DNA from: a virus
DNA: 64,000 nucleotides
Strand: one strand, 5' to 3'
Virus record (IMG/VR): IMGVR_UViG_3300029267_002727
Span: 33,715 to 97,714 of that record
The notes below the pieces were generated by a model. That model saw nothing but the letters and a program-made list of their open reading frames with translations, was not told the DNA's origin and searched no databases. The translations under genes and the position numbers were made by a program. Every line of letters starts with the position of its first letter. Position 1 is the first letter of the stretch. Shown here piece after piece: positions 2,399 through 57,313 of this stretch.

Positions 2399-3652
2399 TT
2401 AGCCTCCAAAACGAATCAGGGCGGGGATCTTGTTGGAATCCAAGAACCCCCACATGTCGATCACCGTTTTCCCAGAGAGGTCCATTTCCTCGAGAGCATG
2501 ATAAGCCTCCCAGGGTGTCATGAGCACCAGTACGTCGCACATATCGACTACTTCATCGAGGGACGGCACACGATCACTGGTGGGGTCATGGTACCACACC
2601 ACGGCCGCTGACGGGAGCATCTCGCCCAGCTTGATGCCGGGCGACTCCTCCATGATATCCACGCCGGGTTTGTACGTCAGGCCCAGGATCCCAATTCTGG
2701 AGCCGTAATGCCACACCTGCGCAGCGAGCCAGTGCGCCATCACATTCGTGAACGCCTCCACGCCGCCGATCAGGACGGCAGGCGTATCTGTGATGCCCGC
2801 ATGCGCAGACAGGGCCCGGCAATCGCGGGGGAAACATGGCCCCCCAGGCCACACACCAGGTGAGAAGTACCTATGCCCGATGCGGGAATCGTCCCCAATC
2901 GCCCCCAGGACATCCCCCGCGTTTGCTCCGGGTGTATTGTGACAGATCATCGCGACCTGGTTGGCAAGCTGAATCTTGGTGACCACTGACACATTGAGCG
3001 CGATCTTGGCCACCTCGGCGCTCGCGACACTCATAAAACGGAACGGCACGAAATTGTCTTCCACATCGACGATACTGCGATAGTACCGCGCCACGACATC
3101 GCTGGCCCGCTCCGTGTCAGCGCCGATCATGACCATGTCCGGGTGCCTGAAATCTCGGACGATCCGGCCCTGCGCCACGAACTCTGGCGAGTAGGTAATG
3201 CCCCACTCTTCACCCAGTACTCCAGCGGCCCAAGCGGACAACGCAGTAGCGATCTCTCCGTTGACGGATCCTGGCATAACAGTGCTTACGATGTTGACGA
3301 CCTGATACTCAGAGTTCTTGCACATGCCTAGCCCGATACGCTCGCACGCGTCAAGGATGAACGCGTTACTGAACGACCCGCCACGCTTGCTGGGCGTCGG
3401 AACAATCACATTGATCAGTTCGCCCCATGAGCAGGCCTCGGCGATGTCCGTAGTGGCTTGCAGTTCTTTGCCGCCGTACTCAGCTACCAGATCAGTCACG
3501 CCTGGCTCCATCGTGTCTACGTCGCCGGCATTGACCCTGTCCACCATCTCTTGATTGATATCTGCACAAAACACCTCGTGCCCGCAGTCCGCAGACACCG
3601 CAGCCAGGGGTAGCCCCAGCCGGCCACAGCCACCCACGTACACTACCTTCAT
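2399..3652 (-). CDS. UDP-glucose/GDP-mannose dehydrogenase family protein
   Basis: GGCGRLGLP, VPTP, STVMPG, SPEF, AEVAK, GGPCFPRD (catalytic Cys), LGLTYKPG; start set at MKVVYV after AGGAGG. Confidence 0.92.
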   Translation of the reverse strand: MKVVYVGGCGRLGLPLAAVSADCGHEVFCADINQEMVDRVNAGDVDTMEPGVTDLVAEYGGKELQATTDIAEACSWGELINVIVPTPSKRGGSFSNAFILDACERIGLGMCKNSEYQVVNIVSTVMPGSVNGEIATALSAWAAGVLGEEWGITYSPEFVAQGRIVRDFRHPDMVMIGADTERASDVVARYYRSIVDVEDNFVPFRFMSVASAEVAKIALNVSVVTKIQLANQVAMICHNTPGANAGDVLGAIGDDSRIGHRYFSPGVWPGGPCFPRDCRALSAHAGITDTPAVLIGGVEAFTNVMAHWLAAQVWHYGSRIGILGLTYKPGVDIMEESPGIKLGEMLPSAAVVWYHDPTSDRVPSLDEVVDMCDVLVLMTPWEAYHALEEMDLSGKTVIDMWGFLDSNKIPALIRFGG

Positions 3653-3921
3653 CAGTCTTCCCTCCTGGTTTCGACTAGGTCGCTCTCGCGCACGACGCCC
3701 CCCTCGATGAAGAATGCGGCGCGCCACTCGATCTCACACCCCAATAACAGCGCTACTCGGTAGGCATAGTATGCAGGGTTTGCGCCGTGCGGTGCGTCTA
3801 TGATCGCCCTGCCGTCGATGTACATGACGGTAACCCCATCAAAGAATACGAACACATCGGGGCCATCCGTTGTGACCTCCGCTATCTCCTCCCCGTTGAT
3901 TGTATGGATCTCAGTCTTCAT
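3652..3921 (-). CDS. Hypothetical protein
   Basis: Coupled ORF MKTEIHTING... Confidence 0.55.
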   Translation of the reverse strand: MKTEIHTINGEEIAEVTTDGPDVFVFFDGVTVMYIDGRAIIDAPHGANPAYYAYRVALLLGCEIEWRAAFFIEGGVVRESDLVETRRED

Positions 3922-13868: not shown

Positions 13869-13898
13869 CTTGACAGGTGTTTAGTTGCATGGTAGAAT
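13869..13898 (+). promoter_or_regulatory. Sigma70 promoter with putative operator
   Basis: TTGACA-17-TAGAAT with extended -10 TG; CTTGAC-aggt-GTTTAG. Confidence 0.8.
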
Positions 13899-13920: not shown

Positions 13921-14469
13921 ATGAACGATCAAGACCTAGCACGGCTAGTACTGGCAGGATACCCGATCTGGGTCGAGGTGACGGACGCACGGCTAGAAGT
14001 CTGCCCCCCGGACGGCCCTTCCCCCTCCCCATTTCCGTACGCCGAGTGGCTCGAGTACGCGGACGAGAACACCACCGAGGCCCTGGACATCTACGTAGAG
14101 TACAACGGCGAAATGTACTGGGCCGGCGAGCTCCTGAGCGGCATAGGGATCGGGCCCCTCCTCCGTAGTGAGGACGCCATGCGGGAGTATGCGTATCAGG
14201 GCGCGCGCGACCCGTTCCGACAGTGGGACGGGTTCTGTACAGAATGCTACAAGTTTTGTAGGAGGCGGCGCGTGATGCGGTCGATCGGTGGCGGGGAGTG
14301 GCAGTGCCCTTACTGTGACGCTATCGAGTATCACCCAGGGGACCTAGAGAGCCCGACCCTGACCACGAACAAGCAGAGAGCTCGGCGAATGGCCGAGCTC
14401 CTATGGGGTCTAGGGTTGCAGGAGCAAGCCCTGGAGTACGATCCAAGATATTCCCCGGAGGTAAACTGA
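13921..14469 (+). CDS. Hypothetical zinc-finger protein
   Basis: CTEC...CPYC; AAGGAGG RBS. Confidence 0.7.
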   Translation: MNDQDLARLVLAGYPIWVEVTDARLEVCPPDGPSPSPFPYAEWLEYADENTTEALDIYVEYNGEMYWAGELLSGIGIGPLLRSEDAMREYAYQGARDPFRQWDGFCTECYKFCRRRRVMRSIGGGEWQCPYCDAIEYHPGDLESPTLTTNKQRARRMAELLWGLGLQEQALEYDPRYSPEVN

Positions 14470-14690: not shown

Positions 14691-14944
14691 TGCAGAACCA
14701 CAAGGACGAACTGACCAGCAAGCAGATCGCGGAACGTGAAAGGCTCTTGGCGCACGGTCTCCCCGAAGGCTATGGGGAGGAAGTCCCGGAGATGGATGGG
14801 GAAGAAGACCCCCGCAGCCGGCACGAGCGACGCGCGGACGCAGCCAGGGCCCGGAAGAAGAAGGCCCGCGAGGCCAAGATCCGAGCCAGGCGTAATCGGG
14901 CCCGCAAGAACAAGCGAGGAAAGAAGCGAGGGAAGAAGCAATGA
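14690..14944 (+). CDS. Small protein with very basic C-terminus
   Basis: Arg/Lys-rich tail ...RNRARKNKRGKKRGKKQ. Confidence 0.6.
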   Translation: MQNHKDELTSKQIAERERLLAHGLPEGYGEEVPEMDGEEDPRSRHERRADAARARKKKAREAKIRARRNRARKNKRGKKRGKKQ

Positions 14945-15312
14945 GCGTGCTTAGTAACCCCACAGAGTGGGCAGAGGGATACCGGGCGTTCTGGCGAGGG
15001 CTGTCGTGGCAGGATACCCCGTACGAAAGCGGCCCAAAGTGGTCGGCATGGGATAGGGGCTGGACGTACGCGGCCAACCAAGAAGCGGAAGAACAGCGGC
15101 GGCGCAACGAGAGCGAACCAATCGACACACCCGCCAGCAGTGAACTATCCGTTGCCTGGTCCCGCGGCTATCTCCACTACTGGCACGACAACCGTCCCAA
15201 CGAGTATGAAAAAGGCTCCATCGAGTACGCCGACTGGCAGGTAGGGTTTGAAGATGCCGCCGAGGAGGACTACCTCGACACCATAGAAACTGAGGAGGAG
15301 CTTGATGATTGA
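14941..15312 (+). CDS. RMF-like (Rmf/CrpP-fold) protein, two motifs
   Basis: WAEGYRAFWRG..TPY..WDRGW and WSRGYLHY..NEY..WQVGF. Confidence 0.7.
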   Translation: MSVLSNPTEWAEGYRAFWRGLSWQDTPYESGPKWSAWDRGWTYAANQEAEEQRRRNESEPIDTPASSELSVAWSRGYLHYWHDNRPNEYEKGSIEYADWQVGFEDAAEEDYLDTIETEEELDD

Positions 15313-15610
15313 GATCTACGAGGTGACGCACCACCTCCCCTACGTGTGCCCCAACTGTGAGGGCCGCCTGACTGTAGTGGGAACCGCAACGAACGAACGC
15401 AACAACCCGGTGATCGGCCTATACTGCCCGCGCTGTGACAGGGCAATGGAGATCGAGATCGTCCTCGACGGCCGGCGCAATCCGCACGCCGAGGGATATG
15501 CCCAGTACGAGCTCTACCTCGATGTTACCAACCCCTATCGCGATGAGTGGCACGCCCAGCGCTTTCATCAGGGAGTGGAAGACGCCAAGAAAGACGAGAT
15601 CCCCTTCTAG
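15305..15610 (+). CDS. Zinc ribbon plus degenerate RMF-like motif plus SSB-like DEIPF tail
   Basis: CPNC..CPRC; HAEGYAQY..NPY..FHQGV; ends DEIPF. Confidence 0.65.
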   Translation: MIEIYEVTHHLPYVCPNCEGRLTVVGTATNERNNPVIGLYCPRCDRAMEIEIVLDGRRNPHAEGYAQYELYLDVTNPYRDEWHAQRFHQGVEDAKKDEIPF

Positions 15611-15620
15611 GAGGACCAAG

Positions 15621-15911
15621 ATGAGTAGCGAGAGCTACCACGAGGGATACCTTGACTTCCAGCGCGGCCACGGGTGCCAATGCAACCCCTACACCCCCAT
15701 GACCTGCGAGTGGCGTGGTTGGAGAAATGGTTGGTTCCAGGCCAAGCAAGATAAGGGCTGGCCCTGGCACGAAGGCTACGATGCCTACCAGAATGGCATT
15801 TCCTGGACCGACAACCCGCATCCAGTGAACGCCGAAGACAATGCGTGGCTGGAGTGGGACGCCGGCTGGGAGCAGGCCCGGCGAGAAGAGGAAGCTATCC
15901 AGGATGAGTGA
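15621..15911 (+). CDS. RMF-like protein, two motifs
   Basis: YHEGYLDFQRG..NPY..WRNGW and WHEGYDAYQNG..NPH..WDAGW. Confidence 0.72.
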   Translation: MSSESYHEGYLDFQRGHGCQCNPYTPMTCEWRGWRNGWFQAKQDKGWPWHEGYDAYQNGISWTDNPHPVNAEDNAWLEWDAGWEQARREEEAIQDE

Positions 15912-16179
15912 ATCAACCGCCTACGTCGAAGGATACTGCGCTTGGGCAGATGGGAGCCTGTGCCCGTACGTTTCTCTGTCTCAGGAGTGGTGGGACTGGC
16001 ATCGCGGCTACTGGCAGGCTAAACAGGAGGACTTTGAGGCCCAAACCCCGTACCAGGAAGGCCATGAAGCCTACTTTCGAGACGTGGACCTGGACGATAA
16101 CCCCTACCCGCCCTCTGAGTCCGCGCACGCTGACTGGAACGCCGGCTGGACGCAGGGTGAGCTAGAGGTTATAGATTGA
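15904..16179 (+). CDS. RMF-like protein, two motifs
   Basis: YVEGYCAWADG..CPY..WHRGY and YQEGHEAY..NPY..WNAGW. Confidence 0.72.
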   Translation: MSESTAYVEGYCAWADGSLCPYVSLSQEWWDWHRGYWQAKQEDFEAQTPYQEGHEAYFRDVDLDDNPYPPSESAHADWNAGWTQGELEVID

Positions 16180-16292
16180 TAACCATATCTGGTTATCGAC
16201 CAGGGCACGCACGTAGGGGCCCAAAAGAGTGAAGACGTCAGACACCTGTGTAGCGCTACAGTAGCGTTACACCGCGTTACAGGAGATATAGC

Positions 16293-16610
16293 ATGAGCCC
16301 ATTTGATGAAGGCTACCAAGCATACTGGAACGGCGAGGGCCCCGAGGCCAATGCGTACGAAGACGGCGAGAACAGGTTCTTCTGGAACACAGGCTGGGTA
16401 TGGGCAGAGTATGATGACGCCAGCCGCACGAATGAGCCAGCGCGCAAACTGCTCAGTGGCGAGGCCGTAGAGATCAACACGGTGGGAGGCCTGCGCGGAG
16501 CGATCGCGGCGCTGCCGGATGTACTCGATGTTCGGGCGTGCTCGGATCAGGGCTTCCACTTCATTACCCTCATGGTCGATGGGAACACGCTGCTTATGGA
16601 GGCTGAGTAA
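16293..16610 (+). CDS. RMF-like motif fused to a C-terminal domain
   Basis: FDEGYQAYWNG..NAY..WNTGW. Confidence 0.7.
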   Translation: MSPFDEGYQAYWNGEGPEANAYEDGENRFFWNTGWVWAEYDDASRTNEPARKLLSGEAVEINTVGGLRGAIAALPDVLDVRACSDQGFHFITLMVDGNTLLMEAE

Positions 16611-16611
16611 T

Positions 16612-16812
16612 ATGTGGGGCTTTGAGATAGCAAGTGATGGTACTCCGGTGGCCGTTGAGGTGCCAACCCCGTACGAGCAGGGCCACCTGGCCTTCTTCGA
16701 GGACAAGGATCTGTCTGAGAACCCGCACATCCGTGACGACTACCGGGCAGAATGGGAGGATGGCTGGCACGCAGCCCGAGCCGAGCAGCGATGGCGGCGG
16801 AAGAGGAAATAA
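16612..16812 (+). CDS. RMF-like protein
   Basis: YEQGHLAFFE..NPH..WEDGW. Confidence 0.7.
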   Translation: MWGFEIASDGTPVAVEVPTPYEQGHLAFFEDKDLSENPHIRDDYRAEWEDGWHAARAEQRWRRKRK

Positions 16813-16852
16813 CTATGAGCGAACTGAGCATACCCGAGATGGAGGCTGAGTA

Positions 16853-17092
16853 ATGAGACCATGCGAGGAGCAAGAGTACAGGTGTGGACGCAATGCGTTC
16901 CTCGACTCGTTTCCATACGACAAAAGCAGATCGGGCGCCTGGCGCAGCGGCTGGATGCACGAGTATCACGTGGCCAGGCGCCAAGACCGGGCCGACCTCA
17001 CTGACGAGATCGAGGCAGCGCTGAGAAAGTACGGGCTATCCTTCCATGACGCGCACAATGCCGTCACAGAGGCCCTGGATCGTGTATTCTAG
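16853..17092 (+). CDS. Shortened RMF-like motif plus C-terminal helices
   Basis: YRCGRNAF..FPY..WRSGW. Confidence 0.6.
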   Translation: MRPCEEQEYRCGRNAFLDSFPYDKSRSGAWRSGWMHEYHVARRQDRADLTDEIEAALRKYGLSFHDAHNAVTEALDRVF

Positions 17093-17100
17093 GAGGTGAC

Positions 17101-17445
17101 ATGACCGACAAATGCTACAACGAAGGCGTATTGGCCCGCAAGCGCAACGAGTCCAGGGATAGTTGCCCCTATTATACGTCCAATCGTGTAGACTGGCTCC
17201 GTGGCTGGGATGACCAGGACTGGCGTATCTCCCGTACTACCCCTATAGGCTACGACGACATCGTGGTACGGATACCTATGTACCCGGAGGACATGGCAGA
17301 CTGGCCGTACGCAGAGATACGGGAAGCCGTGATGGAAGCCCTGATAGAGGGGCTGGAAGATGTCTTCATCGCTACCCCCGCCTGTATGAGCAGGGAAGAC
17401 GCGGAGGAGTGCGTTGCCGAGGCGGTGGGCAGGGTGTGGCAATGA
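17101..17445 (+). CDS. RMF-like protein (closest to canonical RMF) with acidic C-terminal domain
   Basis: YNEGVLARKRNESRDSCPYYTSNRVDWLRGW versus RMF GYQAG..GRSKEMCPY....SQWLGGW. Confidence 0.75.
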   Translation: MTDKCYNEGVLARKRNESRDSCPYYTSNRVDWLRGWDDQDWRISRTTPIGYDDIVVRIPMYPEDMADWPYAEIREAVMEALIEGLEDVFIATPACMSREDAEECVAEAVGRVWQ

Positions 17446-17463
17446 GCGCCGAGACATGGCAAG

Positions 17464-17694
17464 ATGGCACTATATAGTATAGCGGCCCTCGCAATAAGTG
17501 ACACCGGCTCCGAAATATGGGTCGGCAGTGTTCTGGCAGACACTCAGGAGGAGGCCGAGAGGTACGGCCTCGGGGTGGCGCTAGATTGGCTCCCCTGTTC
17601 GTGTGGGTACAGATCCCACAGATGCTGGGCAACACAGGTTCCTGACGGGTATGTACACAAAGCATACCACGAGATTCACGCTCTAGGGAGGTGA
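17464..17694 (+). CDS. Hypothetical protein, paralog of 18283-18567
   Basis: MALYSIAA..GSVLADTQEEA..G..P..GY pattern shared. Confidence 0.55.
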   Translation: MALYSIAALAISDTGSEIWVGSVLADTQEEAERYGLGVALDWLPCSCGYRSHRCWATQVPDGYVHKAYHEIHALGR

Positions 17695-17698
17695 ATGT

Positions 17699-17857
17699 AT
17701 GTCTCGAACTTGTATGAGCAACGCCTGGAAAGAAGGGTTTAAGGCATACCAGTGCGGTGTTCCGTTCGGCGCTAACCCCTATCCCATTTGCTACGATGAT
17801 GACAGGTGGATAGAATGGGAAAATGGCTGGGTCCAAGCGTGTAAATGGTCGCAGTAA
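17699..17857 (+). CDS. RMF-like protein, 52 aa (below the ORF-track cutoff)
   Basis: Read by hand: MSRTCMSNAWKEGFKAYQCGVPFGANPYPICYDDDRWIEWENGWVQACKWSQ after GGAGG. Confidence 0.72.
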   Translation: MSRTCMSNAWKEGFKAYQCGVPFGANPYPICYDDDRWIEWENGWVQACKWSQ

Positions 17858-17877
17858 TGAGTGAGTAAGGAGGTAAC

Positions 17878-18279
17878 ATGAAAGACAATACAGTCAGTAA
17901 CCTGGCCCTCTGGCTGGGCGATGTTCTGGCCGAACGCGCTGACGAAGTGAGTGCCCCTGAGTGCCGCGCTGCCCTGGAGCAGGCAATGGAGAGCGTCGGG
18001 ATCCCAGACCACATGGAGGGATACGACGAGATCGTCGGTTTCGACGAGAAGAGCGACACCGAGCAGTGGCTGATCTGCTGGATCGGCACGCTTACCCCGG
18101 ACAAGCAGTTCGGGGACAGCCCCAGTCAGGGGTGGTCGCTCGTCGCCAACTTCTGGAGCGTGGAGTTCAACCTGTTCATCCGTGAGTTGGCCCAGAAGAT
18201 GGAAGAGCACGTTGACTACTGCGTAGACGAGAAGCTGAAAGAGATCCGCGACTACTATGAGTGCGGGGATGGGTGGTAA
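17878..18279 (+). CDS. Hypothetical acidic protein
   Basis: AAGGAGG RBS. Confidence 0.65.
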   Translation: MKDNTVSNLALWLGDVLAERADEVSAPECRAALEQAMESVGIPDHMEGYDEIVGFDEKSDTEQWLICWIGTLTPDKQFGDSPSQGWSLVANFWSVEFNLFIRELAQKMEEHVDYCVDEKLKEIRDYYECGDGW

Positions 18280-18282
18280 GCC

Positions 18283-18567
18283 ATGAGACTGTACGCAGTG
18301 GCAATGAGCGCCAGCTACGTAGAGGGCAATGAGGTGTATATCGAGACCCTAGCAGGTTCGGTGTGGGCCCGCTCTCAAGATGAAGCCGTAGGAGCAGGGT
18401 ATCGCCGCGTTGCACAAGACTACCCCCTCAGCGACGGATGGGAAAACTACTCTGTCGCGGCCTCTGAGATCCCAGAAGAGGCGCGATTGATGCCCGAAAT
18501 CAAGCTGGAAGAAGACTACGAAGACTACGCACAAGGGTACGCCATGGGTTTGGGATACGACCCATAA
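18283..18567 (+). CDS. Hypothetical protein, paralog of 17464-17694
   Basis: MRLYAVAM..GSVWARSQDEAVGAG..YP..GW. Confidence 0.6.
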   Translation: MRLYAVAMSASYVEGNEVYIETLAGSVWARSQDEAVGAGYRRVAQDYPLSDGWENYSVAASEIPEEARLMPEIKLEEDYEDYAQGYAMGLGYDP

Positions 18568-18587
18568 GACATGGTAAAGGAGCTAAC

Positions 18588-18950
18588 ATGAGCGCAACAG
18601 GCCCCGACCAAACTTGGGAAGAAGGATACAACGCCGGGTTCTACGAGGGGAAACACGCCGACAACCCATACAGTGGGCACGACGAGAGGTTTCACCCGTG
18701 GAACCAGGGCGTACAGGCAGGGTACGATGACGGCTTCTGGCCATTCTATGACGAGGGTATCGAAGCGCGCAGTGATCGCGAGCGCCTCGAAGATAACCCA
18801 TACGAGCCTCGCACTCTCGAGTCAGAGATGTGGAAACGCGGCTGGATAGCCGAGTTTGAGAGAGTGCACGAAGACCGTGGGTGGCACTGGCTGTTCAAAG
18901 CGTCTGATCGCATTGTCTTTCAGCCGGAGGGGGAGATATGCTCTACCTAG
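18588..18950 (+). CDS. RMF-like protein, two motifs
   Basis: WEEGYNAGFYEG..NPY..WNQGV and YDEGIEA..NPY..WKRGW. Confidence 0.72.
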   Translation: MSATGPDQTWEEGYNAGFYEGKHADNPYSGHDERFHPWNQGVQAGYDDGFWPFYDEGIEARSDRERLEDNPYEPRTLESEMWKRGWIAEFERVHEDRGWHWLFKASDRIVFQPEGEICST

Positions 18951-21501
18951 AGATGACCGACGAACAAGAGGCCCGCTATGATGAGCTCTGCGCACGCGAA
19001 GCGGTGCTCCAGGATGAGGTGAGTCATCTCCCCGTCCTTGGCGCAGTCTACCGCCTTGCCAAGATCGACGAGGAGCTCACAGACATTCACTATGAAGTGG
19101 CCGAGATGCTCGATGCCATGATCGCGGAGGCAAGACGATGAGGGAAAGATACGGTATCTGGAGTGAAGACCTGGGATGGTACGTTGGCACGTTCCTGGGA
19201 CTGGGGTTCTTCGAGCAGCACGTCAAGGATGATGACTGCTCCATTGCGGAGCGCCCAGTCGAGTTCGAGTCGTTCACGGAAGCGGACGAGTTCTTGGAGT
19301 CTTGGTGTGGCGGCCGCGCAGGTTGCCAGGTGAGATCCTATACACGCAGTAGTTGCAATGCGTTCCTTGAACGCATCGGCTACTGGGAGTATCTGCAACA
19401 GGCCACCGATCACGAACTCGAAGAGACTGTGGATACTTGGAAACGCAGAGAGGCAACCCACATCATCGAGGGTGGCCGCGCGGAGATGATAGCCTATATT
19501 GCCAGAAAGGAACTGGAATGAACGACTATGATCTCGCCCTTGAGGCAGTGGCCGAGGGATGGGCCATACTGCAAATGCTGGCCGAAACCGACAATGACGA
19601 ACGGTGGTTTGCCAGCACGTTTGCCAGTAACCTGGACGGTATCGCAGCGAAACTGGGCTGGCCCAACGCGCTGGCTATCTGCCGTTACCAGGCAGAAGAA
19701 GAAAACAAGTACCGGGATAGGTACTACTATATGTACTACTAGGAGGCAGTCATGGATCTGGTTTTAGTCAAAACTGTGAGGATAATCGACGGCCAGCAGG
19801 TGATGGACTGGGTACAGGCCGAGTTCGGCCGCTTTGTTGGTATGGCCTGCGAGGGGGCCGTCGATATGCAGGGCGAGTCCTGCTGGTGCGTGTGGAGTGT
19901 CCAGCTTGACCAGTACACGTGTACCCACGACGTCGCCGATGTGCTCGACACGCTACAATTCCAGGTAAGCCGCCATGGAGAAGTGGAGCTCATGGATGTC
20001 CTGGAGTACCTGTACCATATTGGGGAAATAGACCCCGGAATGTACACGTTCTACGCTGAGTGGTAAGGAGGCCAGTATGAACATTGTCTGTGCAAACTGC
20101 GGAAAGTGGCGCAAACACTACGCCAAAGGGCTATGCTTGCGCTGTTATCAGAGCAAGTGGGAGCGCGAGCACGGCCACTCCCGTTCTGTGGGATTCTGTA
20201 CAGAATGCAACAAGATGAGGCAATTGGTGGCCCGTGGTATGTGTTCCGCTTGCTACCAGCGCGACAGGCGCAAGAGACAGAAGGAGGCCGGGGATGCATG
20301 CACTTAAGAAACACGACGATTCCGCCAATGACTATGACCTGAACGAGATGCACACGTGCGTCTGGATCCACATCGGAAACCTGTCCGTTTGCATCCATGA
20401 AACAGACGAGGGCGTGGCAGCTAATATCTGGCCACGCCCCGCCGCTGACGCGCAGGGGCCCCTCACCAGTACGTACGCGTTCTTTACGGAGGCCGAAGAT
20501 GGCGAAAGTTAGATATAAACGCACGGTCACGATCACGATCCAGTTCGGCGAGAAAGACGATCTCGAGACGCTGTGCAGTATATTCGAGGAAGTGATCGGA
20601 TGCGTCCCCGCAGACATCACCCTGGATGAGATCGAGGACGCATTCATGAACGTGCTCGCGGCAGAGCGGGAGTGGGAACTGGGAGGAGACGAAGATGCAA
20701 ACAGTGAATGAAGTCAGGCTCGCCATCCTCGAGAACTTTATGAAGGATGTGTCTATCGCCCTTCAGGACGAGAGTGACCCAGAAAACTTGCGGTGGCGAC
20801 TGTCCGAGATCGAGGCGACATACGTCTCCGCGCTGGAGGTTGCCACGCCCAAGGTTGGTGACAAGGTGAAGATCGTCCGTGCGTGCATCGACGCCGACAT
20901 GCTGAACATTGCAGATGCTATGATCGAGAAGCTGCACGAGCGCGGCACAGTAAACGCGGTCTACCCAAGGACGCAGGCAGTCGAACTCGACTCTACCGTG
21001 TTCGCGTTCACGTTCGACGAGGTGGCCCTGTGCAGGTAGGCGACCGCGCCGTAGTCCGCGCCAACCCCCGCTCCAAGACAGTCAAGGGCGGGGAAGAGAT
21101 AACCATCCTTGAAATCAGGTATACCGAGGTCACGGCGCAGGTACACAACCTGCCCGCGGGCAAAATAGGACAACGTCGTATCCTCCGGGAGGATGTTGTC
21201 ATACCCGAGCAGCTTCAACTGCTCTAAGGAGGTCATCATGGCCAGGCGCAAACAGTGCCCGCGTTGCGGGAAGAGACCGCGCCTGTATGGCGATGGCCAC
21301 TGGTGCCGTAAGTGTACCTCAGACCACAGTGCGTTGATCGCCGAGCTCGTGGGTTACGTAGTGATGGGGCGAGCCGTGGGTCATCGTGGCACCGCGCAAT
21401 GGGAACAAGAACTGCTTCAAGAATTGGCTATTGCACCAAGCGACATGTGGAGTATCGTATCCGCGGCCCAAGAAGCAACGGGCCTATACCCTACCTATTA
21501 A
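18938..21501 (+). other. Run of about 10 small coupled hypothetical genes
   Basis: Contiguous ORFs with GGAGG RBS at 18938, 19138, 19518, 19752, 20077, 20294, 20499, 20695, about 21030 and 21238. Confidence 0.6.
20077..20307 (+). CDS. Tandem C4 zinc-finger protein
   Basis: CANC..AKGLCLRCY and CTEC..ARGMCSACY. Confidence 0.7.
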   Translation: MNIVCANCGKWRKHYAKGLCLRCYQSKWEREHGHSRSVGFCTECNKMRQLVARGMCSACYQRDRRKRQKEAGDACT

Positions 21502-22126: not shown

Positions 22127-23120
22127 TGGCTATCGGAGACATAGGCTATTACCTGCACATTGGGGACTTCATAGAGTCGTCCAAGTACGTTTTCCTGGGC
22201 GAGGTAGTCGAGGAAGGGCTCGTCGTGGATCTAGGACACATTGACACCGGCGAACAGTGCGAACTCGGACATGATGAATATGTCGTTGAAACCGAGGATC
22301 ACGAATTGTGGTATCACCGCCCGCACGTTCTTGGCCCCTACACGGTTGAACAAGCGCGTAACCTACAGGATATCGCCGACAAGATAAACGGCCTGGTGGC
22401 CCACATCGAGGCCGCAAACATGGACTTGAAGCACTTCGGTGAGCAGCTTGACTCGAAAGCTGAGGAGTGGCTATAATGCGTGTCAGCGACAGCAGGATCC
22501 ACGTAGCAGTCGGCGACCTGATGCTGCGCCCGGACGGATGGTGGCGCGTGACGGCGCTGATCCCCACGTACGCCCTGGAGATCGGCGGTGACGACTTTGA
22601 CGGCGGAGTAGCGTGCGAACGCGAGTTCCGGCCGCCGCCCGTCGGCACCAAGTACATCGAGCGCCTCGGCGAGACGCAAGTCAAGACCTGGAGGTAGTGA
22701 TGAAACACCTGCTGTATCAAGAGGAATATCCAACTGGCAAGGCATGCGAGTACTGCGCAGCCGGCGAGATCGGCGAGGATGGCTTCTGCGATCGCTGCGG
22801 GCGATATGTATCGCCAGGGGTAATCCATCTCTGCCCAATTTGTGGCCATGACATCGACACATATCACTGCTGCTACATGGATTGTGGCGAGGAACAGATC
22901 GTCTACCTGGGCCTTGACTCGAACTCGTCCAGGAACTACATCGCGTGGGACCAGGATGGGGACCTGTGGTACTTTGCGTACCGCGCCGACTATGACGTAG
23001 ACAAATTGCTCAGATCATGCCCGCGCCCGATCAGCAGGAGCGAGGCGCAGGAGATTGTCGATGAGTACGAGCAGGAATGCCACCGCGAGATCGCTGCCCT
23101 CGAGGCCGAGATCGAGCGCC

Positions 23121-55571: not shown

Positions 55572-56332
55572 AGTATCACGCAAGTCCGCCGCAGTGGGCG
55601 CGGGACTATATCGAGGAAGTAGGCGACGAGACAGTTGAACCTTCCGTCTGGAGTGCTGCGAAGCCTGGGGTCGATATGCCGGCATTCCTACACACTCCAC
55701 TCATGCGGTTCGCGGCTCTGTGGGCAATTTTCTCGTGCCTTGTAACCTGTGCCATAATGGCGGTGATTCAGTGAGCGAGGATATTGTGATTTACAGTGCC
55801 GAGTATCCCAAGGACGAGCCCTTGTGGGTGGTCATATTCCTGGGGCCGCTGGTCCGCTTTTCGGTCGTAGCTGTTGCCACCGTGTCGATTTTCGCGGTGC
55901 TGACGCTGTGGTTAGTGATACAGATATCAGGAGGATAAACATGGAAGACCCTATCAACAACATCATCAAGACATTCCCGGTGAACGAGACTATCGCCGTC
56001 GAGGATTTGGCGGAGTGGACGCAGGCCGGCTGGGCGTACGTAGGCACGTTTGTCTTTACAGAGGACGTGCAGACGATACAGATCGCGCGCCCGGGCCAGC
56101 CAGATGTGCCGGTGATGCCACGTCACGTTTTCGTCCGGCCGCCCGGACTAGTCTCTACAACGGTGGTCATGTCCACGATCATGGGTGTGGCAGAGGCGTT
56201 CGGAGACAACGAGGAGGTCGAAAAGGCCCTGGACGCGGTGCTGCACAACCTCACCGGTCAAACCATCGAGGGGTTCAGGAAGCGGGCCGCGCAGTATCGG
56301 GCCATGCAGAAAGAACAAGGAGGCATGCTACA

Positions 56333-57313
56333 ATGAGCCAGGTACGAGTCGCGGTAGACGTCGGGTATTGGGGCACGAAGGTACTCTGGGCTAACGGCGA
56401 GCATGGGAGTTCGATCTTTCCCTCAGCGGTAGGGACCCCCGACGAGGCACGGTTCTCCCTGGGGTTCGAGGGGAAATCAATTATCCTGCGTGAGCCCCGG
56501 AATGTGGTTATCGGCCGGCGGGCACTGATGACAAGTCGCCACGTCGTGCAGTCCCGGTCACCTGACTGGGTGCGGTCGCCTGAATGGTACGACCTGTTCT
56601 TGGCCTCGTTGACCGAGGTCACGCAGGCCCTGAACTACAACCTGGACCTCTGTGTCGGGCTGCCGATGGCACACTACAAGCCCAACAAAGAGATCGTGAG
56701 GGCGCGCCTTCAGGATACACACGTTGTGGTACGCGAGGGCCGGCAACCCCAGCGGTTCCACGTGCACGAGGTCCGGGTAGTGCCCCAGGCCTGGGGTGTC
56801 GTTATTGACCAGGCGATCGACGGTAATGGGGAATACGACGTTTCATGGCTGAACTACACAGTCGGAGTGATCGACATCGGTGGAAATACCACCAACATCC
56901 TGGCCCTGGATGGCCTGGCCGAGGTCCCGTCAGGGAGCACATCTATCGCCAAGGGTGCGATGGATATCACAAGCGCGCTACAGGCATGGCTGAACGATAA
57001 CTGCCCCGGCCTCTCGCTGCGGACGCATAAGCTGATGCGGGCTGTCACTGACCGCAAAGTGATGTATGACGGGGAATGGATAGACCTTAGCGAAGTCATT
57101 GAAGGGATCGCAGAGCCAATGGTTGCCGAGGTTGTGGCCCAGACGAGCCAGCGTTGGCCGAACCTGGTTGGCATCGACAAGTTGCTGATCGGTGGCGGCG
57201 GCGGGGCCCTGCTGGGTGCATATATCCAGGAGAGGATCCCCCGGGCTATCTTGGTGGATGACCCGGTCATGGCAAACGTCAGGGGCTACTTCAAGCTGCT
57301 AGGGGTCAAATGA
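56333..57313 (+). CDS. parM: ParM/StbA actin-like partition ATPase
   Basis: VDVGYWGTK, VGLP, VVPQ, IDIGGNTTN, IGGGGA, ANVRGY. Confidence 0.9.
   Translation: MSQVRVAVDVGYWGTKVLWANGEHGSSIFPSAVGTPDEARFSLGFEGKSIILREPRNVVIGRRALMTSRHVVQSRSPDWVRSPEWYDLFLASLTEVTQALNYNLDLCVGLPMAHYKPNKEIVRARLQDTHVVVREGRQPQRFHVHEVRVVPQAWGVVIDQAIDGNGEYDVSWLNYTVGVIDIGGNTTNILALDGLAEVPSGSTSIAKGAMDITSALQAWLNDNCPGLSLRTHKLMRAVTDRKVMYDGEWIDLSEVIEGIAEPMVAEVVAQTSQRWPNLVGIDKLLIGGGGGALLGAYIQERIPRAILVDDPVMANVRGYFKLLGVK

Follow-up and report, generated by a model that had tools for sequence, protein, structure and literature searches.

Why should a phage carry a whole cluster of diverged genes for one small domain, the domain of ribosome modulation factor (RMF), and what could the products do in an infected cell? 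The question is raised by a 64,000-nucleotide stretch of DNA, here called the window, which covers positions 33715-97714 of the 97,714-bp IMG/VR record IMGVR_UViG_3300029267_002727; the record comes from an uncultivated phage, has direct terminal repeats and is rated 100% complete. At 14941-18950 of the window, ten co-directional genes on the + strand (g1 to g10 in the following, with a and b for the first and second domain of a two-domain protein) encode 14 copies of a helix-loop-helix domain of about 40 residues in approximately 4 kb. A preliminary description of this locus, made from the sequence alone, had recognised the RMF-like motifs and had proposed, among other possibilities, a role in ribosome hibernation. 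The analysis reported below retains the kinship with RMF and speaks against the hibernation role. For the whole picture, that is an expansion of the RMF fold with the anatomy described here, whose products form a class of non-ribosomal, protein-binding takeover or anti-defence factors, we have a tentative preference at a little under even confidence.

The number of copies had to be established before anything else was built on it. All ten open reading frames (ORFs) are present on the + strand at the starts given in the preliminary description; nearly all of them are preceded, 6-9 nt upstream, by a Shine-Dalgarno sequence of the GGAGG type, and at several junctions of the array a stop codon overlaps or directly adjoins the next start codon. 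The 14 copies fit one alignment register, in which two Gly residues are invariant and one Trp is nearly so. A hidden Markov model (HMM) built from them and run on the six-frame translation of the 97.7-kb genome returned precisely those 14, the next match having an E-value (E) of 0.46, and a second search of the genome with the same motif profile gave the same 14 again. Since such a self-search is circular for the members of the model, three independent checks were added. The Pfam RMF model, PF04957, found nine places in the genome (E 1.6e-9 to 0.06), all in the array and in the correct frames, and matched eight of the ten array proteins; its gathering score is 27.9 bits, which g8 (33.2 bits) and g10 (29.0 bits) exceed, while the other eight proteins score 13.5-24.4 bits or not at all. 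When each copy was left out of the profile in turn, E fell below 0.01 for 10 of the 14 (for example 1.2e-8 for g1a, 2.2e-4 for g5, 3.3e-7 for g6, 3.2e-9 for g9 and 3.9e-7 for the second domain of g10) and was 0.049 for g10a. The remaining three copies were compared by hhalign with the 11 solid ones, with P-values of 6.4e-5 for g1b, 1.3e-3 for g7 and 5.5e-3 for g2, the last being the weakest of the 14; in all three the motif elements are spaced as in the canonical form. Moreover, metagenomic orthologues of g2, at 67-76% identity, retain EGY, NPY and F..GV, and the motif of g1b is retained in a metagenomic orthologue of g1 with 79% identity; the keeping of these motifs in orthologues of 67-79% identity points to purifying selection on the weak copies g2 and g1b. 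From the leave-one-out searches, hhalign and the orthologues together we count 11 robust copies and three degenerate ones (g1b, g2 and g7). Thus ORFs, alignment, HMM and Pfam agree with the ten genes and 14 motifs originally reported, and the copies do occur singly, as tandem pairs or joined to other domains, as had been said of g1 to g10; the recurring motif itself is upheld in that all 14 copies align, but the strict regular expression used to define it is found literally in only two of them (g3b and g9).

The assignment to the RMF fold (PF04957, Rmf/CrpP-fold), which had been read from the motif, was borne out by Pfam, NCBIfam, a profile search of the PDB, Foldseek and VIA-align. When the profile of the 14 copies was compared with all PDB sequences, the significant matches were RMF chains only (2jrm 9e-5, 6h4n 8e-4, 4v8g 1e-3). 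An AlphaFold2 (AF2) model of g3, computed with 40 tandem relatives, has a mean predicted local distance difference test score (pLDDT) of 92.5 and consists of two helix-loop-helix units, so that the RMF helix-loop-helix expected by the preliminary description holds for the robust copies. The top specific Foldseek match of this model was again RMF (9iot_y, root-mean-square deviation (rmsd) 1.2 A over 42 columns, probability 0.97; 2jrm, 1.9 A over 45), although Foldseek E-values are poor for a domain of so small a size; independently, VIA-align placed RMF first (4v8g_AV, Z 6.3, rmsd 2.5 A, 47 of 53 residues). The two-helix fold with the G-Y / C(N)-P-Y / W-x-x-G-W core is seen in the g3 model, and the core columns are kept in the 14 copies. 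RMF of Gammaproteobacteria (PF04957, NF011162; structures 4V8G, 6H4N, 9IOT and 2JRM) has the same helix-loop-helix of about 40 residues, and in RMF and the array the spacing of G-Y-x-A ... C/N-P-Y ... W-x-x-G-W is identical. Judged from profiles and predicted models, the common ancestry and fold of the array domain and RMF is real.

Kinship, however, is not equivalence. RMF is a single basic chromosomal protein of about 55 residues, whereas the phage has 14 acidic copies in ten genes, some of them in tandem or fused. All ten array proteins are acidic, with isoelectric points (pI) of 4.1-6.0, and aromatic residues (W+Y+F) make up 10-19% of them, in agreement with the acidic and aromatic-rich character noticed at the outset; only the g8 domain, taken alone, reaches a pI as high as 8.0. 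In the 100S ribosome of E. coli, helix 1 of RMF is inserted between helices of the 16S rRNA, to whose backbone Arg3, Lys5, Arg8, Arg11 and Arg15 are bonded, and RMF also touches the proteins S1, S7 and others (bioRxiv 10.1101/382572). The position equivalent to Arg15, which precedes the invariant Gly, is occupied by Glu in 11 of the 14 copies and by Arg in g1b only, and the equivalent of Arg11 is basic (Lys) only in g8. The net charge of the 14 residues upstream of the motif lies between -4 and +1, and the basic N-terminal helix by which RMF touches the 16S rRNA is absent; many copies begin so close to the motif that they have no N-terminal extension. In addition, the NF011162 model, which defines true RMF equivalogs, has a cut-off of 40 bits, and the best score in the array is 26.5; taken with the PF04957 scores, this speaks for a place in the superfamily and not for equivalog status. 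Given the acidity and the loss of the Arg and Lys residues that grip the rRNA, the array proteins probably do not act as hibernation factors; the RMF-like hibernation role that had been suggested is not supported, in view of the opposite charge and the missing contacts to 16S rRNA. For annotators this is a caution, since 'ribosome modulation factor' is the wrong label for such genes.

If the rRNA-binding residues have been lost, which residues have been kept? In helix 1 the columns of low entropy hold an aromatic residue, E-G-aromatic and A-aromatic; helix 2 has W-x-x-G-W-x-x-A, and the turn has N-P-Y. With their spacing of i, i+3/4 and i+7, the conserved positions of each helix share a single face, and the remaining columns exceed 2.2 bits. 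We infer that the conserved residues form the hydrophobic core between the helices and that the variable ones lie on the surface. The copies are otherwise strongly diverged, with pairwise identities of 17-46% (mean 29%). Some gene-level relationships can still be followed: g3 and g4 are paralogues over their full length (37% identity over 90 residues, E 7e-19), and the alignment of g1 with g10 spans both domains, from which it follows that two-domain genes were duplicated as units.

A further question is how far this arrangement is peculiar to the phage. The domain as such is common in phages and metagenomes: against representative protein clusters, the profile gave 3138 matches at E<=1e-3. 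Approximately 100 of the best 150 contain at least two stretches of the domain, mostly two, and some external proteins of 300-1300 residues have up to nine; Pfam run on 55 long external proteins found RMF alone in 53 of them. Most of the small relatives with a single domain are likewise acidic, 41 out of 46 representatives having a pI <6. In the structure database BFVD there are dozens of phage proteins of 44-70 residues with the same fold (rmsd 0.4-2 A over 41-49 residues, probability about 1.0), including Rmf/CrpP models from Caulobacter phages CcrSC and CcrBL9, Pseudomonas phage MR4, Burkholderia phage BcepSaruman, Serratia phage PS2, Escherichia phage phAPEC8 and others, and four PHROGs (10492, 20222, 26347 and 1757) have the Rmf/CrpP fold. 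The Rmf/CrpP-fold proteins of phages and mobile elements that NCBIfam describes (NF041886, NF041887 and NF041856) are, like those of the array, small, mostly acidic and phage-borne. The best array scores against their curated cut-offs are 24.9 (g8) of 28 bits for NF041886, 15.1 of 40 for NF041887 and 13.4 of 35 for NF041856; as the array proteins remain under all three, they represent new subfamilies.

The number of copies per genome is a different matter. The 16 IMG/VR records in which the motif was found have 1-3 copies each, and an HMM rescan of their fetched stretches also gave 1-3; five cultured phages known to hold the fold, with genomes of 148-322 kb, have 1-4 dispersed copies; and four metagenome loci, collected with a narrower alignment, have one each. 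Taken together, the 21 whole phage records and four loci have 1-4 copies each, against 14 clustered in 4 kb here, which makes the array unusual. The expectation that such genes occur in one or few copies was therefore correct for the 25 records and loci, none of which has more than four, and compared with this limited sample the array is an outlier. A search of plasmids by tblastn with an external tandem protein gave no match, and full-text literature searches returned no paper that deals with RMF-fold proteins of phages or with arrays of them. The locus had been put forward as the best candidate for an undescribed system. This is only partly so: the domain family is already catalogued in NCBIfam, PHROGs and BFVD, where it is uncharacterised, and the novelty would reside in the size of the array and in the new subfamilies.

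Two other groups of relatives deserve comparison. CrpP, from the P. aeruginosa plasmid pUM505 and from integrative and conjugative elements (ICEs), is likewise a small protein of mobile elements and by NCBIfam naming belongs to the same fold family, and g8 matches a CrpP-related model with E 0.055 only. An enzymatic activity that modifies ciprofloxacin was proposed for CrpP and has since been disputed; nothing in the array points to an enzyme. In the part of the survey literature represented by PMC7918633, crpP-like genes are not always tied to resistance. The second group consists of metagenomic multi-repeat RMF proteins, such as P0008 (561 residues, 7 stretches) and P0047 (653 residues, 9 stretches), which multiply the same acidic domain; in these proteins, known from short contigs, the copies stand in one chain, while in the phage the domain was multiplied chiefly as separate genes. 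The proteins P0008, P0011, P0047, P0075 and P0084, of 430-650 residues, each have 6-9 RMF-fold stretches and no further Pfam domain.

When in infection would the array be expressed? From about 8 kb of the window onward the genes are oriented on the + strand. A sigma70-type promoter (TTGACA-17-TAGAAT with an extended -10 TG, 11 of 12 consensus matches) lies at 13870-13898 on the + strand and heads the operon with the array; it is the strong promoter that had been placed at 13869. The next strong promoters on the + strand after it are at 22448 and 23788, and no convincing terminator was found between the 13870 promoter and 19 kb. The array is thus promoter-proximal, within the first 5 kb of the transcription unit behind 13870, and it would be transcribed from that promoter and hence expressed early. 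Pfam recognised zero families in the genes flanking the array and in those interleaved within it.

The reading that we tentatively prefer can now be stated in full. The array proteins would be early products of the host-type promoter at 13870, as one stable scaffold in differently surfaced versions, and each paralogue would have its own macromolecular target in the host (or phage), to be bound through protein-protein contacts. The likeliest targets would be basic proteins that bind nucleic acid, for example defence nucleases (of restriction systems or others) and transcription or translation factors, which the array proteins could inhibit as acidic mimics of nucleic acid, either in the takeover of the host or against its defences. 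That ten diverged genes are kept beside the first promoters implies that the fold does something important for which different surfaces are needed, and the tandem pairs suggest that two domains may be the working unit. Ocr of T7 and ArdA are also small, strongly acidic and expressed first, but the likeness is one of mechanism by analogy and of general acidity only, with neither sequence nor fold kinship; in fact, no array protein matched PF07275 (ArdA) at E<=1. Among the 55 long external proteins, one is a fusion with a match to the ArdA antirestriction protein (E 4.9e-5), and such an ArdA-like fusion can be taken as a weak hint toward an anti-defence role. A more specific form of the proposal, in which the array is a repertoire of mini-binders on the RMF scaffold and each paralogue neutralises a different defence or nucleic-acid-binding target, appears possible but doubtful to us. 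Were it true, acidic Rmf/CrpP-fold proteins would make up a large unrecognised superfamily of anti-defence and takeover inhibitors, with this phage as its most expanded known case. In any event, the array offers ten natural variants of one 40-residue scaffold that can be compared for partners, toxicity and anti-defence activity.

Several results weigh against this proposal or against parts of it. Acidity and an early position are compatible with many functions, the ArdA fusion is one case, and the other external fusions, with DUF2213 and with dATP/dGTP pyrophosphohydrolase, point elsewhere. In the leave-one-out searches g1b (E 0.34), g7 (2.1) and g2 (48) were not significant, and RMF was absent from the fold-search lists of the g2 model, which were dominated by its ribbon and held zinc-ribbon or generic matches only. 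The phage has no close relative among GenBank phages, as judged by a megablast search with the region and by tblastn searches with g8 and g3, and IMG/VR scans with g3 and with the phage helicase returned no relative of the array; this helicase is less than 30% identical to that of any cultured phage. Finally, every copy is closer to some external protein than to any other copy of the array, so that part of the array could have come by acquisition and not by local duplication. Sequence comparison thus indicates an array that is old, or in part assembled by acquisition. A recent burst of duplication was also considered and was rejected on the 17-46% identity and on the closer external relative of each copy.

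Other explanations start from the same observations. The ribosome could still be the target if the array proteins displaced or sequestered host RMF, woke 100S ribosomes or bound basic ribosomal proteins near the RMF site, and the ancestry and fold common to RMF and the array, together with the g8 domain, which is the most RMF-like (33.2 bits, domain pI 8.0), agree with this; as RMF touches S1 and S7 as well, a surface for protein contacts could have persisted. The array would then be a module by which the phage takes over translation. Yet nearly all copies have lost the basic residues that contact rRNA and have the opposite charge, the best score against the RMF equivalog model is 26.5 bits where 40 are required, and a single conserved ribosomal site hardly explains ten divergent paralogues, for which reasons we regard a target in the ribosome or in translation as improbable. 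A function in the phage's own processes, in which the domains would serve as adaptors or in assembly by binding one another, DNA-handling proteins of the phage or virion proteins, seems to us unlikely, if not to that degree. Association between domains is suggested by the tandem fusions and by the multi-repeat proteins with up to nine stretches, and the external fusions with DUF2213 and dATP/dGTP pyrophosphohydrolase fit such a role; the array, however, is promoter-proximal behind a host-type promoter, with many orphan small genes around it and the structural module far away, and divergence of this extent between copies would be unusual for parts of one assembly.

A very low probability attaches to the idea that the proteins soak up the nucleotide signals of immune systems, as sponges for cyclic oligonucleotides, glycocyclic ADP-ribose (gcADPR) or similar molecules, with aromatic residues stacking on the bases. 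They are indeed small, early and rich in aromatics (10-19% W+Y+F), and a repertoire could cover several signals, but the conserved aromatics occupy positions expected for the helix-helix core, no array protein has a Pfam match to known sponge families, a two-helix domain of 40 residues has no obvious pocket, and strongly acidic proteins bind anionic nucleotides poorly. We give equally little credence to evolutionary debris, in which small genes, once duplicated, would drift with no function of their own. Such drift would account for the very low identity between copies, for the three degenerate ones and for the three proteins whose orphan extensions lack relatives. Against it, all ten frames are intact and nearly all have a ribosome-binding site, the core residues are retained in all copies, the two genes that look weakest have orthologues of 67-79% identity with the motif, and the size of phage genomes is under strong constraint. 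The individual genes are described below in their order along the + strand.

The first gene, g1 (14941..15312, 123 residues, pI 4.2), has a robust domain at 14965-15081 and a degenerate one at 15151-15264, and no Pfam match. It is followed by g2 (15302..15610, 102 residues), in which an N-terminal CxxC...CxxC zinc ribbon precedes the degenerate RMF-like helix-loop-helix at 15482-15592; Pfam gave weak zinc-ribbon matches. The AF2 model of g2 (pLDDT 71) shows a beta zinc ribbon and then helices at residues 60-72 and 81-96, and the ribbon can be laid on the zinc ribbon of NrdR with Z 4.0 and rmsd 2.4 A over 43 residues. Paired CxxC zinc-ribbon motifs recur in the operon, being found at the g2 N-terminus (15302-15480) and in the genes at 13921-14469 and 20077-20307. 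Tandem RMF-fold domains make up both g3 (15621..15911, 96 residues, pI 4.6; domains at 15633-15752 and 15762-15890) and g4 (15904..16179, 91 residues, pI 4.1; domains at 15919-16029 and 16045-16167; PF04957 E 3e-5). The gap of 113 nt between g4 and g5 is the sole long intergenic gap of the array and holds two stable hairpins (16176..16272, + strand) with stems of 10 and 11 bp, a minimum free energy of -36.6 kcal/mol, a z-score of -2.49 and no T-run.

Beyond this gap, g5 (16293..16610, 105 residues) joins an N-terminal RMF-fold domain (16299-16412) to an orphan C-terminal part of 65 residues, and g6 (16612..16812, 66 residues) is a single domain (16666-16785) with E 1.1e-4 to PF04957 and 4.6e-5 to NF011162. 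A degenerate domain (16865-16975) with a helical tail forms g7 (16853..17092, 79 residues), which matches PF04957 with E 0.075, phrog_20222 with 4e-4 and g8 with 0.005. The best RMF-like domain of the array (17110-17226) is that of g8 (17101..17445, 114 residues), with E 4.5e-8 against phrog_10492; it is followed by an orphan C-terminal domain of 72 residues, for which a look-up in the ESM Atlas gave no informative look-alike. The single domain (17720-17848) of g9 (17699..17857, 52 residues) is 47% identical to g3b. The last gene, g10 (18588..18950, 120 residues), has a tandem pair at 18609-18725 and 18735-18860 and a tail of 30 residues. In some copies three or four additional Cys residues are seen near the NPY turn, as in g3a (15675-15710, H-G-C-Q-C ... 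C) and in g9, which has four Cys (17711-17845); in this subset of copies they could possibly serve in metal binding or form disulfides.

Three non-RMF genes are interleaved with the array, also on the + strand. o1 (17464..17694, 76 residues) and o2 (17878..18279, 133 residues) have no Pfam family. o3 (18283..18567, 94 residues) is a paralogue of o1, with 35% identity over 66 residues (E 4e-7), so that a second, smaller expansion is found within the RMF-fold array. It ends in a C-terminal YAxGYAMGLGY tail (18520-18567). Similar tails, of the form EGYA(M/A)G(L)GY(G)D/E, end P0012 and P0003, two external proteins with RMF-fold domains in tandem; the o3 tail may be what is left of half a domain, or a short motif common to these proteins.

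Elsewhere in the window, an actin-like protein of 432 residues is encoded at 56015-57313 (ALP_N E 1e-19, MreB-like_C E 1e-12), perhaps with a role in the positioning or segregation of DNA. In the leftward block, at 2399-3727 on the - strand, there is a complete UDP-glucose/GDP-mannose dehydrogenase with all three of its domains, an auxiliary sugar-nucleotide enzyme.

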